From the NCBI GenBank assembly GCA_049975485.1, contig JBNGDC010000001.1:144996-208995 (forward strand): a DNA stretch of 64,000 bases, read 5' to 3'. Below the pieces are notes generated by a model, which ran no database searches, was not told the DNA's origin, and saw only the letters and a program-made list of their open reading frames with translations. Origin of the DNA: Phycisphaerae bacterium. Lineage in GTDB: Bacteria; Planctomycetota; Phycisphaerae; SM23-33. Shown in pieces: positions 1 to 52,476 of the stretch. Both the position numbers and the translations under genes were made by a program. Each line of letters starts with the position of its first letter. Position 1 is the first letter of the stretch.

Positions 1-278
1 TCGTTGACCTCCTCGGTGCCGGTAGCAAGGAACTTGTCCTCCTCCGGGTCGAGGATGCTTATCAGCCGCTGGAACTCGCCGAGGTGCTCCCGCTCCTCGT
101 TGGCGATGTCGATGAGCACCTTCTTCGCCAACGGGTTGTCGGTGGCATCGGCGTGGGACATGTACAGGTGGATCGCTTCCTCCTCGGCGGCCACGTTCAG
201 CCGGAGGGCGCGAACCAGTTCGGAGTCCGACAGCTTGCGGGGCACGTTGCCACTGAATGGATTCGGGAAATCAGGCAT
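1..278 (-). CDS. rubrerythrin/ferritin-like diiron protein (partial; C-terminus runs off the window start)
   Basis: The reverse strand reads MPDFPNPFSGNVPRKLSDSELVRALRLNVAAEEEAIHLYMSHADATDNPLAKKVLIDIANEEREHLGEF, with two ExxH diiron motifs. The start ATG is at 278 with an AGGAAAGGA RBS upstream. No stop occurs before coordinate 1. This ORF is missing from the track because it is open-ended. Confidence 0.6.
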   Translation of the reverse strand, partial: MPDFPNPFSGNVPRKLSDSELVRALRLNVAAEEEAIHLYMSHADATDNPLAKKVLIDIANEEREHLGEFQRLISILDPEEDKFLATGTEEVN

Positions 279-331
279 CGTTGCGTAATCCTTTCCTCAT
301 CTGATGGGACAGTTGCCTATGGCCACGTCGT

Positions 332-832
332 TCAGGAGCCGACCTTTCGTCGTGCCTCCGAGAGCGTTACCAGGTGGGTCTGCTCTTCACGTATAAGCTC
401 ATCCACGGTGCCGCGGTCCTTTTCGCCCACCAACGGTCGCATCTCGTTCATCAGCATCAGGGTATCCCGCTCGTATCGGGATGCAAGCTCGACGGCCTCT
501 GCGTCCGAGCCGCAATTCTCGGCCGCCCGCTCTGCGGCGGCCGGGTCCGGGAACGCCCGCCCGGAAGTCAGAGCCGAAAGGTAGGCCATGTACTGACCGG
601 GGTATTCCTCCGGCGTCTTGACTCCGCCGAGGCGCTCGAGCATGTCCTCGAACCGCTTCTGGTGGAATTTTTCCTGCTCGGCGAGGTCCGCGAAGATGCT
701 CCGCAGCCCGCTGTCTTTGGCGCTGTCGGCGAGGCGACTGTAGAAGGCCACGCCGCTGCGCTCGTCCTCCACGCCTATCTTGACCAGCTCCGCGACTTCG
801 AACTGCTCGGGCATATTCGTCTCCTGTGGCAA
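332..832 (-). CDS. rubrerythrin-family ferritin-like protein
   Basis: 166 aa with two E-x-x-H motifs (EQEKFHQ and EEQTHL) typical of rubrerythrin/ferritin-like four-helix diiron domains. It is a paralog of the adjacent partial gene. Confidence 0.55.
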   Translation of the reverse strand: MPQETNMPEQFEVAELVKIGVEDERSGVAFYSRLADSAKDSGLRSIFADLAEQEKFHQKRFEDMLERLGGVKTPEEYPGQYMAYLSALTSGRAFPDPAAAERAAENCGSDAEAVELASRYERDTLMLMNEMRPLVGEKDRGTVDELIREEQTHLVTLSEARRKVGS

Positions 833-1208
833 TGCAGCAGTGTTCGTTCTCGGAGGCCCACGTTTTCGTTCGCTCGGGGTGGGTCCTCTAACTACTGTTC
901 CGGACAGTCCATCCTGATTTCACAGAAGTATAGCAGCCATTTTGGGGGCAGTCCCAGAACGCGCAGATGATTTTTCCCCGGCTCGGGCGGCAGCTCAGGC
1001 GGTCGAGCCAAGGGCACCGAGATAAAAAAATTTCGCGGCGGGGCGAAAAAGCTGTTCGTGCAGATATGGAGGTGGCGATAATCTTTCTAAAGCTGTGGTG
1101 CTCTCATAGATAGCAAGGTTCGGCCCGCAGCGTGCCGAGGGAGGCACGCATCCGACGGGTCGAGGCATACGTCGCGGCCTGCGTGGTCGCGAACAAGGAG
1201 CCACGGCA

Positions 1209-1310
1209 ATGGCCAAGAAGATGGTCAAGAAGGCGGCCAAGCCCGCCGCGAAGTCCGGCAAGGCGAAGTCGAAGCCGGTCGCCAGAAAGGCGAAGAGCGC
1301 GAAGAAGTAA
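1209..1310 (+). CDS. 33-aa Lys/Ala-rich basic protein (histone H1-like / KAAK-repeat micro-protein)
   Basis: ATG at 1209 is preceded by AAGGAG (1195-1200) with an 8-nt spacer. It encodes MAKKMVKKAAKPAAKSGKAKSKPVARKAKSAKK and ends at TAA 1308-1310. A strong intrinsic terminator follows at 1347-1378. The ORF is too short for the ORF track. Confidence 0.55.
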   Translation: MAKKMVKKAAKPAAKSGKAKSKPVARKAKSAKK

Positions 1311-1346
1311 TTGCTTCGCGTCGCCAAGGCAGCAAAACAGCAGTCT

Positions 1347-1378
1347 CGGGTCGGCCACTCAGCCGACCCGTGTTTTTG
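1347..1378 (+). terminator. Rho-independent terminator after the small basic protein gene
   Basis: Stem CGGGTCGGC, loop CACTCA, stem GCCGACCCG, followed by GTGTTTTTG. Confidence 0.6.
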
Positions 1379-1462
1379 CGCTGCGACCGGCAGTTGAAAG
1401 TGCCCGCCGCTTGTGGTCTGCTTAAGCGGACTTGCCCCCACACAGAAGCGGAGGTTTCTTGC

Positions 1463-2812
1463 ATGAGCGGTGAGCAGACTCCCAAGCGGCTGAATGTCAT
1501 CTGGATATTCGGCGACCAGCATCGCGGTCAGGCGCTGGGCTGTGCCGGAGACCCCAACGTTACCACCCCCAATGTTGACCGCATGGCCGCCGAGGGCGTG
1601 CATTTCACCGGCGCCGTCTCGGGCTTTCCGCTGTGCTGCCCGTACCGCGGTTCGCTCATCACCAGTCGATACCCGCACAAGTGCGTTCCGGGTCACGAGT
1701 ATCCGCTGGACGCCGACCTGCCGACAGTTGCGACCGCATTCAAGGATGCGGGCTACCACACGGCCTACTTCGGCAAGTGGCACCTCGGCGGCTGGAAGGA
1801 GCGCGACGGGCGTGCGGCGATGTATATTATCCCGCCCCAGCAGCGGGGCGGCTTCGACGTCTGGGCCGGCTACGACAACAACAACCGTCAATGGGACTCC
1901 TGGGTCCACGGCGGCGTCGGCGAAGAGGCGTTCCACCGGCGGCTCGACGGTTACGAGACCGACGCATTGACCGACATGCTTATCGACTACCTCCGCTCCC
2001 GTAGCGACGGGGGCGAACACAGGGAGCCCTTCTTCGCGTCACTGTCCGTCCAGCCGCCGCACGACCCCTACGTCGCCCCCGAAAGGTGGATGGGCCGTCA
2101 CAGGAGCGGTGACCTGGTTCTGCGGCCGAACGTGCCGAACGTCGAGCGTGTGGTCGCACAGGCCCGCCGCGAGCTGGCGGGTTACTACGCCCAGATTGAG
2201 AACATCGACTGGAACATCGGGCGTATCCGTCAGGCGCTTGAGCAGACGGGGCTGGCCGAGAACACACTGCTGATGTTCTTCTCCGACCACGGCGACCAGC
2301 ACGGCTCGCACGGGCAGTTCCGCAAGATGAGCCCCTACGAAGAGGCGATCCGTATACCCATGATCATAGCGCCGGCCCGGGCGGACTATCGCTTCAAGAC
2401 CGCCGCCACCGACGTGCCGGTCAACCACGTGGACATGGCCCCGACAACGCTGGGGCTTTGCGGTATTGACACACCTGAGTGGATGTCCGGCACGGATTAC
2501 TCCGGGCACTTCATCCGGGGCCGTGAGGCGGCCCGGCCGCCGCGCGAGTCGGCCTATCTGCAGGTGGTCGTGCCGACCGGGCACGGCAACAGCGTGGACA
2601 GGCCATGGCGCGGCGTGGTCACGAGCGACGGCTGGAAATACGCCGTCCTGCCGGGGCAGCCGTTCATGATGTTCAACCTGAACGAGGATCCCTACGAGCA
2701 GGTGAACCTGGCCTACAACACCCGCTTCCGTGCGGAGCGGCGGCGGCTGCAGGAGATGCTGGCCGGGTGGATTGCCGATACCGACGACGAGTTCGAGCTG
2801 CCGGAGGTATAG
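1463..2812 (+). CDS. sulfatase (arylsulfatase family, formylglycine-dependent)
   Basis: CCPYRGSLITSRYPH carries the CxPxR FGly motif, together with GKWHLG and FFSDHGD motifs. ATG 1463 has a GGAGG RBS (1449-1453). The track start at 1370 (GTG) lies inside the upstream terminator hairpin and is rejected. There is no signal peptide. Confidence 0.8.
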   Translation: MSGEQTPKRLNVIWIFGDQHRGQALGCAGDPNVTTPNVDRMAAEGVHFTGAVSGFPLCCPYRGSLITSRYPHKCVPGHEYPLDADLPTVATAFKDAGYHTAYFGKWHLGGWKERDGRAAMYIIPPQQRGGFDVWAGYDNNNRQWDSWVHGGVGEEAFHRRLDGYETDALTDMLIDYLRSRSDGGEHREPFFASLSVQPPHDPYVAPERWMGRHRSGDLVLRPNVPNVERVVAQARRELAGYYAQIENIDWNIGRIRQALEQTGLAENTLLMFFSDHGDQHGSHGQFRKMSPYEEAIRIPMIIAPARADYRFKTAATDVPVNHVDMAPTTLGLCGIDTPEWMSGTDYSGHFIRGREAARPPRESAYLQVVVPTGHGNSVDRPWRGVVTSDGWKYAVLPGQPFMMFNLNEDPYEQVNLAYNTRFRAERRRLQEMLAGWIADTDDEFELPEV

Positions 2813-2818
2813 CGGGCG

Positions 2819-3024
2819 TGACCGCGGGCGACGTGTCAATCTGGGCCTTGTATCTGGGGTTGCTGCTGCTGCCGCTGACGGCCGGCGTGCTGGCGGCGGA
2901 GTCCGTGGCGGGCGGTCGGTCCATGCCGCGTGCGGCGCGGGTCTGGTCGTATATCGGACGGGGGCTGGCGATTGTCGCGGCAGTGTGTTTTGCGGCGGCA
3001 GCTCTGCTGTACCTGCTGGGATAG
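2819..3024 (+). CDS. possible small two-TM membrane protein (hypothetical)
   Basis: A GTG start gives VTAGDVSIWALYLGLLLLPLTAGVLAAE...AIVAAVCFAAAALLYLLG, with two hydrophobic helices. There is no homology call; this could be an artifact. Confidence 0.2.
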
Positions 3025-3232: not shown

Positions 3233-3270
3233 CTATTGCCTATTGCCTATTGCCTGCTGCCTACTGCCTA
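3233..3270. repeat. tandem heptanucleotide repeat (CTATTGC/CTRCTGC) x5.5, equal to (AGGCARY)n on the thuA sense strand
   Basis: CTATTGC CTATTGC CTATTGC CTGCTGC CTACTGC CTAC. It abuts the thuA stop codon. It is the reverse complement of the 20021-20097 array. Confidence 0.7.
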
Positions 3271-3996
3271 CTCTTCGAACCAGCCCATGGGTTTGTTGGG
3301 CGCGCCCAGCGGCATGGTGCCGGTCGGTGCTATCCAGCGGACGGCGTTGGTAATCACACGCAGCACCTCCGGCTGCTTGTAGATGGGGAAGGTCTCGTGC
3401 CCGGGCCGGAAGTAGAACACCTTGCCCGCGCCTCGCGTCCACACACAGCCGCTGCGGAATACCTCTCCGCCGGCGAAGCTGGAGATGAATATCTGTTCGT
3501 CCGGCTGGGGGATGTCGAAGTGCTCACCGTACATCTCGGTGTGCTCGATGATTATGCACTCGCCGATGCCCTCGACGATCGGATGCCCCGGCCGCGTGAC
3601 CCACAGCACCTCGCGCTCGCCGACCTCGCGCCACTTGAGCTGACAGGTGGTGCCCATCAAGCGCTTGAACGGCTTGGAGAAGTGCCCGCTGTGCAGCACT
3701 ATCAGCCCCATGCCCTGAAGCACCCGCTTCTGCACGCGGTCCACGATTTCGTCGGACACTTCCCCGTGTGCCATGTGGGCCCACCAAAGCAGCACGTCGG
3801 TGTCGTCGAGCTTGTCGTCCGTAAGGCCGTGCTCCGGTTCGTCGAGCGTAGCGGTGCCGGCCGTGATGCCTTCCTGCGCATTCAGATGCTCGGCGAGGCA
3901 GGCGTGGATGCCGTCGGGGTAAACCTTCCTTACGGCCTCGTCCTTCTTCTCGTGGCGAAATTCATTCCAGACTGTGACGCGAATGTCCTTACCCAT
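3268..3996 (-). CDS. ThuA-like (trehalose utilisation / class-I glutamine amidotransferase-like) protein
   Basis: 242 aa. The N-terminus [27 protein letters not shown] and overall length fit the ThuA family. Confidence 0.55.
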
Positions 3997-4342: not shown

Positions 4343-6892
4343 ATGGAGAGACCCTTGAACCGAAACGGCCTTTTTACCCGGTATGCCTGCATAGTAGCCG
4401 TTGTGCTCGTGACCGTATCGGTGTCCTGGACGCAGAACGCGTCACCCGTTGAGGTCGAAGACGGCTTTGCCCAACGTTTCGAGGCCGGCAAGCTCTGGCG
4501 CGACGGCGTCGATATGGCGATGGAGGGGGACTTCTCCGCCGCCTTGCAGAAGGTGCGCAGGGCGGCCGAGATAGACCCCGACGACGAGTACATCGCCGCC
4601 GGCGTGGAGTGCCTGGATGAGTATGTATCCCGGCGGGAGCGGTTCGAGACCGAGCGACGGCTGGAATACTCCGATGCCGTCCGTCGCGTTCGCAGGGGCA
4701 TGCTTGCCCAGGAGTATCTGCCCAAGCTTGCCGCCGCCGAGCTGCATGAGCCCCTGCGCAAGAAGGTCGAGCAGGCCATCATCGAGCAGTACAACTCCGT
4801 CAACAGCGCTTCATCGCTTGATGAGCTTTCCGAGCAGGAGGCGCTGGATCTCAGGTCCGAAGTCATCGCCGTAACGGAGAAGATGTCGGCCGGTGTGGAC
4901 CAGGCCGTCGCCATGCTCGACGGCGACGACAGTGAATACGCCCGTCAGTTCGCCGAGGCCGCCGAAGAAGTCTCCTACTACATTCGGGTGTACCGCAACG
5001 GCTGGCGGGGCGTGCGGCTTGAATCCGCCGACGACCGCGCAAAGGCCGCCGATGTCCTGGCGGAGGTGGAGGACAAACTGGCAGACGCTATCTCCGAGCT
5101 GGAGATGATGGTGGATAAAAAGCCCTGGCGGCGGGCGCTGTCGCAGGGAATCCTGGCGAGAGAGCTGCACCGCAAGGACAACGGCCCGCTTGACGGGAAG
5201 GATTGGTACAACGAGTTGATAGCCCTTGCGGAGGAGCACGCCGAGCAGGCCGTCGCCGACGCCGAGTGGTACGACGCAGCCGCCGCGTACAGCGGCCTGG
5301 AGGAGTTGACCGGCGGCAACGGTCTCTACGAGCAGCAGATGGATCAGGGCCGCAGGCACGTTAGGGTGCTGGGGCTGTATGGCGAGGGCAACCCCGAGAG
5401 CGATACCCAGCCGGTGGATAACACCTGGCAGGAACTGGTAGCCGGCGCCGACGCGAACATGGTTCGCGAGGCCATCCAGCGCCTGGACCAGTATTACGTT
5501 GAGGCGGTGGACTATCGGGACCTGGCGAACGGCGCGCTGCTGGCGATGGAGGTGCTCGCGGATACGCCGCAAGCGGCCGAGAGCTTCGAGACGCTCAACG
5601 ATGAGGAGAAACGTCAGCAGTTCCTCAGCGCCATAAGGAGCATGCGGGAGAACATCGCCGACAAGCAGCAGGTAGGCACGCTGGACCTGCTGTTCATGCT
5701 GAATCACGTGCTGAGGGAATCCGACCGCAGCGTAAAGCTTCCGGCCGAGGTCATCGCCGTGGAGTTCGCCGACGGGATGCTCAACGAACTGGACAAGTTC
5801 AGCTCGATGATCTGGCCGCACGACCTGGCCGACTTCGAAAAGCACACGCGCGGGCATTTCTACGGCGTCGGCATCCAGATTACCAAGGAGATCGGCGAGC
5901 CGCTGGAAGTGGTGACCCCGCTGGCGGGCACGCCGGCGTATCGGGCCGGCATCAAGCCGGGCGACGTCATCATCGCCGTGGACGGCCGCCGCACCGAGGA
6001 CCTGGGCATAGACAAGCTCGTGAGAATGATCATGGGCGAGGAGGGCACGCGAGTGACGCTGAGAATAGAGCGTCCCGGGCGTGTCAAGCCGTTCGACGTG
6101 ACACTCACGCGCGACAAGATCACCATCCGGACGGTCAAGGGCTGGCAGCGTGTGAACGACGAGGGCTGGCAGTACCTGGTGGGCCAGACCGACGGTGTCG
6201 GCTACGTGCGGTGCAGCCAGTTCAGCGAGCAGACGGTAGAGGAGCTTACCGAGGCGCTGGAGCAGGTCAACGGCGACGAAGTGGACGCCCTGGTGCTTGA
6301 CTTGCGGTGGAACCCCGGCGGGCTGCTCAGCTCGGCCGTCGAGGTCGCCGACGAGTTCCTCAATGACCACCGCAGGATAGTCTCCACCAAAGGTCGCCAG
6401 GCGCGCTACGAGGAGCGGTCGGCCAGCCCAAGGGGCGAGTATCTCGACAAACCGCTGGTGGTGCTGGTGAACGACGCCAGTGCATCGGCCGCCGAGATCG
6501 TCGCCGGCGCCCTGCAGGACTGGGACCGGGCCATCGTGGTCGGCGAGCGGACCTACGGAAAGGGCAGCGTCCAGCACGTAATCCGCATACGTCCCGAACG
6601 GTCCATGCTGAAGCTGACCACCGCCTACTACTACCTGCCGCATGGCCGGCTGCTGCACAGGGTCAACGGCAAGGACGAGTGGGGCGTGGCCCCGGATATC
6701 GAGGTCCTGATGACTCCCGAGCAGACCCGCCGCTGGCTGGAGCTGCGACGGGAGACCGACCTTATTCAGGATATCGAGCCGGAAGAACTGAACCGCGAGC
6801 TGTCCAGGCAGTACGAGGCCGACCTGCAGCTACAGACCGCCGTCGTGCTGCTGAAGCTGATGCGACTGGACGAGCAACGCTCCGCGGCTTAG
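4343..6892 (+). CDS. S41 family C-terminal processing peptidase with PDZ domain and a long N-terminal extension
   Basis: The C-terminal half has a PDZ (GIKPGDVIIAVDG) and an S41 core (LDLRWNPGGLL, VVLVNDASASAAEIVAGALQD, GERTYGKGSVQ). There is an N-terminal signal/TM segment, and about 450 aa of Ala/Glu-rich helical sequence precede the protease. Confidence 0.8.
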   Translation: MERPLNRNGLFTRYACIVAVVLVTVSVSWTQNASPVEVEDGFAQRFEAGKLWRDGVDMAMEGDFSAALQKVRRAAEIDPDDEYIAAGVECLDEYVSRRERFETERRLEYSDAVRRVRRGMLAQEYLPKLAAAELHEPLRKKVEQAIIEQYNSVNSASSLDELSEQEALDLRSEVIAVTEKMSAGVDQAVAMLDGDDSEYARQFAEAAEEVSYYIRVYRNGWRGVRLESADDRAKAADVLAEVEDKLADAISELEMMVDKKPWRRALSQGILARELHRKDNGPLDGKDWYNELIALAEEHAEQAVADAEWYDAAAAYSGLEELTGGNGLYEQQMDQGRRHVRVLGLYGEGNPESDTQPVDNTWQELVAGADANMVREAIQRLDQYYVEAVDYRDLANGALLAMEVLADTPQAAESFETLNDEEKRQQFLSAIRSMRENIADKQQVGTLDLLFMLNHVLRESDRSVKLPAEVIAVEFADGMLNELDKFSSMIWPHDLADFEKHTRGHFYGVGIQITKEIGEPLEVVTPLAGTPAYRAGIKPGDVIIAVDGRRTEDLGIDKLVRMIMGEEGTRVTLRIERPGRVKPFDVTLTRDKITIRTVKGWQRVNDEGWQYLVGQTDGVGYVRCSQFSEQTVEELTEALEQVNGDEVDALVLDLRWNPGGLLSSAVEVADEFLNDHRRIVSTKGRQARYEERSASPRGEYLDKPLVVLVNDASASAAEIVAGALQDWDRAIVVGERTYGKGSVQHVIRIRPERSMLKLTTAYYYLPHGRLLHRVNGKDEWGVAPDIEVLMTPEQTRRWLELRRETDLIQDIEPEELNRELSRQYEADLQLQTAVVLLKLMRLDEQRSAA

Positions 6893-51693: not shown

Positions 51694-51894
51694 ATGGCTA
51701 CCGGAAAAGTGAAGTGGTTCAACGACGCAAAGGGTTACGGGTTCATCACGGCGGACGACGGCACAGATGCCTTTGTCCATCACGGCGACATCGAAGGCGA
51801 GGGTTTCAAGACCCTCAACGAAGGTGAAACCGTCGAGTTCGAAATGACCCAGGGCGAAAAAGGTCCCAAGGCCGTCCGCGTTCGTAGGGCATAA
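51694..51894 (+). CDS. cold-shock protein (CspA family)
   Basis: [63 protein letters not shown], with RNP1/RNP2 motifs. AAGGAG RBS. Confidence 0.95.
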
Positions 51895-52275: not shown

Positions 52276-52476
52276 ATGGCTACCGGAACAGTCAAGTGGT
52301 TCAACGACGCCAAGGGATACGGGTTCATTACCGCCGACGACGGCACCGACGCCTTCGTGCACCACAGCGATATCGAGGGCGAGGGCTTCAAGACCCTCAA
52401 CGAGGGCGAGACCGTCGAATTCGAGCTGACGCAGGGCGAGAAAGGCCCGAAGGCCTTGAGCGTTCGCCGCGCCTAA
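52276..52476 (+). CDS. cold-shock protein (CspA family), paralog
   Basis: [63 protein letters not shown]. Confidence 0.95.

Follow-up and report, generated by a model that had tools for sequence, protein, structure and literature searches.

Does a lysine-rich open reading frame (ORF) of 33 codons, located 5′ of a sulfatase gene in a Phycisphaerae bacterium, encode a protein, and if so, what might such a small protein do? The ORF lies in a 64,000-nt stretch of contig JBNGDC010000001.1 (hereafter the window, with position 1 as its first nucleotide), in which a sequence-only reading had proposed a self-contained micro-gene for a histone H1-like peptide. Its description of the start signal and the peptide was exact at 1195–1310: a Shine–Dalgarno (SD) sequence, AAGGAG (1195–1200, plus strand), is followed after 8 nt (1201–1208) by the ATG at 1209, which opens a micro-ORF of 33 codons plus TAA (1209–1310, plus strand; product MAKKMVKKAAKPAAKSGKAKSKPVARKAKSAKK). 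No upstream in-frame start codon is present for this micro-ORF. Its signals, its conservation and its coding-type evolution fit an independently transcribed and translated small gene, and on this comparative evidence we regard the micro-ORF as very probably a real protein-coding gene.

In the window, 838 ORFs encode 20 aa or more, and none but the micro-ORF reaches 20% Lys; among 2869 ORFs from 231 kb of high-GC DNA, only the micro-ORF and its orthologues were both Lys-rich and free of acidic residues. At the three codon positions, its GC content is 0.42, 0.48 and 0.97 (∼0.66, 0.42 and 0.84 for neighbouring genes), and AAG, the preferred codon, is used for each of the 13 Lys. Of 26 AAGGAG sites in the window, only seven precede an ATG by 5–10 nt, and the six besides that of the micro-ORF open ORFs of 66–1011 aa; in this window, AAGGAG together with ATG marks real gene starts. 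The arrangement of SD sequence, ORF and terminator likewise exceeds chance expectation. A gene caller predicted the micro-ORF in four assemblies, so that the earlier expectation that most annotators would miss it was too strong.

An ORF of 84 aa on the opposite strand (1104–1358, minus strand) was also considered and rejected: it is a Leu/Arg-rich mirror of the Lys/Ala frame, starts within the terminator hairpin, has no SD sequence and would carry its GC-rich codon position first. Elsewhere in the window, two tandem genes for cold-shock proteins of 66 aa (51694–51894 and 52276–52476, plus strand) each have a start signal of AAGGAG, 7 nt and ATG, of the kind found in the micro-gene.

Four lineages share the neighbourhood of the micro-gene, and four neighbouring proteins relate them as (((window, L002/L021), L050), L019/L020). 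A cassette of ∼370 nt, comprising upstream blocks, leader, SD sequence, ORF and terminator, is found 5′ of the orthologous sulfatase gene in the window, L050 and L019/L020. The gene order in L050 is that of the window, with a micro-gene of 39 aa (MAKKMVKKAVKPAAKAKPAAKSGKVSKPVARKSQSAKKK) and with sulfatase and ThuA proteins 87% and 90% identical to those of the window. In L019/L020, a gene of 34 aa (MAKKMAKKAGKPAAKAGKPVKPAGKKPQGAKKKK) lies directly 5′ of a sulfatase gene whose product is 82% identical to that of the window, and the left-hand neighbour in L019 is a different one, another sulfatase gene. The sister lineage of the window, L002/L021, cleanly lacks ∼370 nt (window ∼1022–1394) in two independent assemblies; it keeps the rubrerythrin, sulfatase, ThuA and S41 genes, and its sulfatase gene has its own conserved upstream sequence and SD sequence. 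Because the cassette is present in three lineages and missing only from this sister lineage, it was, judging from this distribution, present in the ancestor of the clade and lost a single time.

Conservation of both ORF and terminator in relatives had been named as a check on the sequence-only reading. Both are kept in L050 and L019, with the loss in L002/L021 as the exception, and the conservation in two further lineages (L050 and L019/L020) supports the view of a self-contained micro-gene with its own SD sequence, ORF and terminator. Nor is the region merely the 5′ untranslated region of the sulfatase gene, the outcome that the same reading had listed as contradicting it, since the sulfatase gene retains its place and sequence where the cassette is deleted. 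As far as it has been found, the micro-gene is confined to three lineages of one uncultured clade of Phycisphaerae (Planctomycetota), the group to which anchor searches assign the window. A Logan contig, L001, encodes the identical peptide but matches the window at 100% identity over 1.2 kb and adds no independent comparative information. When the window and the other 47 loci were scanned with a profile of the cassette, no further copy was found. Using rubrerythrin as an anchor, we saw no nearby Lys-rich ORF in ten Planctomycete loci, and it was the sulfatase and ThuA anchors that revealed L019 and L050. An origin from a mobile element, phage or plasmid was considered as well and is not supported, because blastn against plasmids and phages returned only short chance matches or none; terminal repeats were not present.

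The three-way alignment of the window, L050 and L019 showed that AAGGAGCCACGGCAATGGCCAAGAA, which covers the SD sequence, the spacer, the ATG and the first five codons, is invariant. Between the window and L019, identity was 95.5% from SD sequence to ATG, 87.5% in the terminator, 87% in the first half of the ORF, 79% in the upstream blocks, 70% in the leader, 65% in the second half of the ORF, 49% in the spacer between stop codon and terminator, and 37–58% at the cassette edges. By this comparison, the conservation profile tracks the functional elements; the cassette is kept as a unit even with the unlike left neighbour in L019. Insertions and deletions within the ORF measure 3, 15 and 18 nt, all in frame, and one of them is an added KPAA unit in L050; those in the flanks measure 1, 2, 4 and 20 nt. 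In L019, both other forward frames contain stop codons, and the GC content at third codon positions (GC3) is 0.97 in the window and 0.85 in L019, with low values at the first and second positions, a pattern shared with the genes nearby. For codons 2–18, the rates of nonsynonymous (dN) and synonymous (dS) substitution were 0.08 and 0.48, a dN/dS of 0.17 that compares with 0.14 for the sulfatase gene; the values for the micro-ORF rest on 19 substitutions.

All three peptides start with a motif of nine residues, MAKKM(V/A)KKA; KPAA-type units come next, and the C-terminus is rich in Lys. The units are KPAA and KPVA in the window (residues 11–14 and 22–25), two KPAA and one KPVA in L050, and KPAA, KPVK and KPAG in L019. 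Replacements in the C-terminal half are confined to A/P/G/S/V/K/Q/R, and each peptide has 13–14 or more Lys and no acidic residue. This pattern fits selection on the N-terminal motif and, beyond the motif, on charge and composition, not on exact sequence.

The cassette in which the micro-ORF is embedded starts with a left edge (1022–1073, plus strand) where homology to L002 stops and homology to L019 starts, with only 43% identity to L019. It contains an A7 run and a hairpin, TTTCGCGGCGGGGCGAAA (1031–1048), which is terminator-like on the minus strand. The upstream blocks GGCGATAAT, AAAGCTGTG and TCATAGATAGCA (1074–1116, plus strand) are invariant in the three lineages and form a putative promoter/operator region, in which GATAAT (1077–1082) matches a −10-like hexamer at five of six positions. 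On the minus strand, the same blocks resemble a sigma-70 promoter (ATGACA-18-AATTAT in L019, 4637–4666; ATGAGA-18-GATTAT in the window and L050), and leftward of them the window has a terminator-like hairpin with a T7 run (1048–1021). Together, these minus-strand elements (1024–1116) could act as an insulator or operator, or could belong to a divergent transcript of very short length.

Downstream of the blocks, the GC-rich leader (1117–1194, plus strand) is predicted by RNAalifold on the three lineages to form two stem-loops (∼1118–1168, with an inner hairpin at 1131–1148, and 1172–1192). Their stems are invariant or show one-sided changes to G–U, and loops and linkers vary. The transcript 1117–1385 folds with a z-score of −4.3, and no Rfam family came near threshold in window positions 800–1600.

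The stop codon is followed by a spacer (1311–1346, plus strand), which is not conserved, can hardly be aligned between lineages and carries indels of 1 and 4 nt, and then by the intrinsic terminator (1347–1378, plus strand). Its 9-bp stem, with eight G–C pairs, is formed by CGGGTCGGC (1347–1355) and GCCGACCCG (1362–1370) around the 6-nt loop CACTCA, and is followed by TG and T5 (1373–1377), within the tail TGTTTTTG. The terminator with 9-bp GC stem and T5 reported by the sequence-only reading is thus present; its distance from the stop codon is 36 nt, not 37. The scan detected it independently in the window, L050 and L019, and the pairing of the stem is kept through changes from U–A to U·G and from C–G to U·G, with a different loop in each lineage. 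A G+C-rich hairpin, a directly adjoining U-tract (TGTTTTT) and conservation in the orthologues mark it as Rho-independent. No other terminator-like site within the first 6 kb of the window is as strong; as a class, such sites are not rare there (6 found versus 4.0 ± 2.0 expected). The right edge of the cassette (1379–1401, plus strand), where homology to L002 resumes, ends in a conserved GTTGAAA (1395–1401).

The peptide itself is small (3.45 kDa) and strongly basic (isoelectric point 11.6), with 13 Lys, one Arg and neither Asp nor Glu. Lys makes up 39% and Ala 27% of its residues, two are Pro, and bulky hydrophobic residues are lacking. AlphaFold2 (AF2) gave no fold (predicted template modelling score 0.20) and modelled residues 1–22 as coil; the peptide is predicted to be disordered. 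Searching Pfam-A and NCBIfam with hmmscan at E ≤ 10 assigned it to no family, although the composition correction of HMMER limits the power of this search here, and a sequence profile search of the PDB, ribosome structures included, found no matching chain. PADLOC and PHROGs gave no significant match, the PHROGs value for the L019 peptide (E = 0.33) being at chance level. An exhaustive phmmer search of 1.84 billion representatives returned no match but was uninformative, as the collection contains neither the window peptide nor that of L019. There was also no match in a word-index search with the ORF padded to 40 aa. Patterns derived from the peptide alignment retrieved 275 viral and 600 metagenome stretches, none of which passed tblastn, probably owing to low-complexity filtering, and a DNA pattern for MAKKM[AV]KKA gave 20 matches in metagenomes, all of them unrelated proteins or chance ORFs.

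Among metagenome contigs, MAKKMVKKA also opens long Lys/Ala-rich N-terminal extensions in unrelated sequences (L024 43–750, minus strand; L033 4789–5514, plus strand; L031; L022 252–650, minus strand). Some of these extensions, with GAKGF repeats and from an organism of 74% GC, are fused to an RsfS domain, others to GroES/Cpn10; a variety of proteins seem to carry such polycationic additions. Two stand-alone Lys-rich candidate ORFs also open with MAKKM[AV]KKA (L036 1645–1809, plus strand, 55 aa; L027 949–1155, plus strand, 69 aa). Both contain some Glu, come from metagenome contigs of ∼50% GC and show no similarity to the cassette.

What could a protein of this kind do? By analogy with known Lys-rich tails, we put the chance somewhat above even that the cassette is a stand-alone one for a micro-protein that acts as a free polycation and binds polyanions by charge; a nucleic-acid or polyanion binder as the product we rate at about even or slightly better. 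The segment ∼1022–1401 would then be the stand-alone expression cassette of one micro-protein, in which a conserved region serving as promoter/operator precedes a structured leader of ∼90–120 nt, a consensus SD sequence and the ORF of 33 codons, with a strong intrinsic terminator at the end. The peptide would be a minimal free polycation whose charge makes it bind cellular polyanions non-specifically, in the manner of the AlgP/PhaF tails with their KPAA repeats and of the tail at the C-terminus of histone H1. The chromosome would be the most probable target, with neutralisation of charge or compaction at the nucleoid as the effect; RNA or polyphosphate would be possible targets, too. The number of units, and hence the charge, would drift across lineages through in-frame gain and loss of repeats. 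Within this model, we infer the transcription start, translation in vivo and the binding of polyanions or DNA. A more far-reaching version, which we consider doubtful, would make the peptide a free-standing minimal bacterial 'H1-tail' module that is abundant and unannotated, whose dosage and number of KPAA units tune nucleoid or polyphosphate condensation in Phycisphaerae, and which belongs to a wider hidden class of low-complexity cationic micro-proteins missed by homology search and tryptic proteomics. In this version, the structured and conserved leader could make expression dependent on stress or growth phase.

Several observations count against an independent gene for a polyanion-binding protein. 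No sigma-70 promoter was recognised on the plus strand in the window, L050 or L019, which is why we can only infer the promoter assigned to 1074–1116. Among the three lineages, no RNA pair, those of the leader stems included, shows a double compensatory change. The comparison as a whole comprises three independent cassette sequences (window, L050 and L019), and the small number of substitutions applies to all dN/dS values of the micro-ORF. From codon 19 to the end, dN/dS is ∼0.9, a near-neutral value that indicates weak constraint on the sequence. Since the cassette was deleted from L002/L021 while the sulfatase gene stayed, the micro-gene is, on these assemblies, dispensable there and not needed by the sulfatase gene. 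Composition alone does not separate DNA, rRNA and polyphosphate as targets, and proteins linked to ribosomes (RsfS) or chaperones (GroES) carry similar Lys/Ala-rich extensions as well. Finally, no homologue was found outside the clade, in searches that have little power for these peptides; the true orthologues themselves escaped homology search and were found via synteny only.

The main rival is a lineage-specific micro-protein associated with the ribosome or rRNA, whose place would be a pocket of the rRNA or the surface of the ribosome and not DNA. There is precedent in bL37 (24 aa), bS22 and Thx, tiny, very basic and lineage-restricted ribosomal proteins that were found only by cryo-electron microscopy (PMC5876184). 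The strong SD sequence, the preferred codons (13/13 Lys as AAG) and the strong terminator would fit a highly expressed gene, and in other bacteria MAKKMVKKA-starting extensions are fused to the ribosome-silencing factor RsfS. We nevertheless consider this explanation unlikely: no ribosomal family in Pfam/NCBIfam and no PDB chain matches the peptide, in which Arg is almost absent and the aromatic or bulky residues typical of specific rRNA contacts are missing, and a near-neutral C-terminal half, a length that varies between 33, 34 and 39 aa and the deletion in L002/L021 are all atypical of structural ribosomal proteins. Alternatively, the cassette could specify a non-coding small RNA, or a translated ORF with a functionless peptide, the Lys-rich frame being incidental. 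A strongly structured transcript with conserved leader hairpins and terminator is what this would look like, and the weak constraint on the C-terminal half and the loss in L002/L021 are compatible with it, as is a lower dS in the ORF (0.44) than in the sulfatase gene (0.85), a hint of constraint on synonymous sites. It would, however, leave unexplained the perfectly conserved SD sequence, 8-nt spacing and ATG. The restriction of in-frame indels to the ORF, the frame-specific GC3, the purifying selection on codons 2–18, and a Lys-rich, acid-free composition and length that were kept where the nucleotides diverged to 65% identity also speak against an RNA, which no Rfam family matched, and we judge it decidedly improbable.

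The position of the cassette raises the question of whether it regulates the sulfatase gene in cis, as a leader peptide/attenuator in which the progress of the ribosome over the 13 Lys codons decides whether the terminator forms. In outline the arrangement is classical, with a short ORF enriched in one codon (13 AAG in 33), a terminator shortly past the stop codon and a gene on the same strand, and the cassette adjoins the same sulfatase orthologue in three lineages. The details are against it, and we hold it to be very improbable: neither minimum free energy nor centroid folds contain an antiterminator pairing that competes with the terminator, and the spacer in which an antiterminator would be expected is the least conserved part, with indels that are not multiples of three. 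Moreover, the sulfatase has no functional link to lysine supply, L002/L021 lost the whole cassette and kept an intact, conserved sulfatase gene, and non-syntenic sulfatases of ∼70% identity have no cassette. Hardly credible at all, to our minds, is a membrane-active or secreted cationic peptide of the antimicrobial type. It would have the short length and high positive charge seen here, and as we read the sequence, residues 2–18 might fold into a helix of weak amphipathicity, with Lys on one face and Ala/Met/Val on the other; yet this non-polar face is almost entirely Ala, without Leu, Ile, Phe or Trp (grand average of hydropathy −1.0 to −1.3), Pro residues at positions 12 and 23 break helices, and AF2 predicted coil for residues 1–22. 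A signal peptide is lacking, the adjacent genes do not include any for export, immunity or modification, and the PADLOC and PHROGs searches mentioned above were without significant match.

The micro-gene is flanked by a divergent rubrerythrin-like gene (332–832, minus strand) and by the sulfatase gene (1463–2812, plus strand), which has a GGAGG of its own; the next neighbours are the ThuA gene (3268–3996, minus strand) and an S41/PDZ peptidase gene (4343–6892). At the sulfatase stop codon begins an ORF for a small hydrophobic protein of ∼68 aa, probably with two membrane helices (window ∼2815–3024, plus strand), which is 65–79% conserved in all four lineages, the cassette-less one included (L019 6351–6560, L050 6956–7159, L021 3088–3294), and is probably translationally coupled to the sulfatase gene. 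On the other side, the rubrerythrin-like gene is part of a conserved cluster (window 1–832, minus strand; L021 1–1464; L050 9165–10918), which in relatives comprises two rubrerythrin/ferritin-like genes and then a gene for encapsulin (Linocin_M18); in the window, the encapsulin gene of this cluster falls outside the stretch. The cluster suggests an encapsulated system with ferritin-like cargo. Two blocks 5′ of the rubrerythrin gene, the 20-nt ATTTCACAGAAGTATAGCAG (∼922–941) and GATTTTTCC (∼969–977), are conserved in the window, L002 and L050 in otherwise diverged intergenic DNA. On the minus strand, ATTTCACAGAAGTATAGCAG contains TATACT, which is likely a −10 element or operator of the rubrerythrin/encapsulin cluster.

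The micro-gene described here is a clean and credible micro-protein gene and an example of a class that annotation and homology search handle poorly. Short low-complexity peptides form a blind spot, escaping profile- and word-based homology searches despite real orthologues, as in this case, and in standard proteomics trypsin cuts them to pieces, as it would a peptide with 39% Lys; the study on AlgP mentions this difficulty, too (PMC9239181). Should the peptide prove to be made and to bind DNA or polyphosphate, it would rank as roughly the smallest free-standing bacterial protein of a 'histone H1-tail-like' kind described so far, and would offer a simple system for asking how much polycation suffices to affect the organisation of nucleoid or polyphosphate. 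Its practical importance is limited, as the gene occurs only in a handful of uncultured lineages of Phycisphaerae and can be dispensed with in one of these, and its functional class, that of Lys/Ala/Pro-rich polyanion binders, is already known.

How does the peptide compare with members of that class? The C-terminal domains of AlgP and PhaF are built of a KPAA repeat, with KPVA as its commonest variant, and are disordered, with a composition like that of the H1 tail; these domains and isolated KPAA peptides bind DNA, the KPAA peptides in vitro, and both an association with polyphosphate granules and changes in repeat number have been described (PMC9239181). The peptide resembles these tails in being rich in Lys, Ala and Pro, free of acidic residues and predicted to be disordered, in containing KPAA and KPVA units and in gaining and losing units in frame. 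They are therefore a closer likeness than the KAAK-type repeats that the sequence-only reading had emphasised. Unlike AlgP, which has 352 aa, a helical N-terminal domain of 124 aa and ∼25 perfect KPAA repeats, the peptide has 33–39 aa and 2–4 units. There is no long KPAA array, only the nine-residue N-terminal motif and no folded domain precedes the first unit, and the micro-gene has its own putative promoter region, SD sequence and terminator. Homology to AlgP/PhaF was not statistically detectable.

With the tail of linker histone H1 and with Hc1/Hc2, the peptide shares the Lys/Ala/Pro composition, the strong positive charge and the predicted disorder, and presumably an electrostatic mode of DNA binding or condensation. 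In contrast to H1/H5, there is no winged-helix globular domain (33 aa in total, no Pfam match and no fold by AF2), and the Pfam models for linker histone, Hc1 and HC2 did not match the peptide at E ≤ 10. It is 4–7 times shorter than H1, Hc1 and Hc2. The label 'histone H1-like' is thus apt for composition but not for homology, given the lack of a globular domain, of a match in Pfam, NCBIfam or the PDB, and of detectable homology to H1, Hc1/Hc2 or AlgP.

Among small basic proteins, ScvA and Hq1 of Coxiella burnetii are DNA-binding proteins of the small-cell variant (PMC4766238). They are, like the peptide, very small, strongly basic, stand-alone bacterial proteins, and are described as binding DNA. 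Coxiella is an unrelated gammaproteobacterium, however, and the peptide and ScvA were compared by description only. ScvA has ∼30 aa and is rich in Arg and Gln, not in Lys, Ala and Pro. As for bL37, bS22 and Thx (24–33 aa, long unannotated), the peptide is equally tiny, very basic and restricted to one lineage; those proteins have conserved, specific, Arg-containing sequences buried in rRNA, whereas the peptide is of low complexity, variable in length and dispensable in a sister lineage. As judged from these sequence comparisons, the peptide is not a member of the H1, Hc1/Hc2, AlgP/PhaF or known ribosomal-protein families. By analogy, it may best be described as a stand-alone version, of 33–39 aa, of the Lys/Ala/Pro-rich 'H1-like' module, in composition a miniature AlgP/PhaF/H1 tail.

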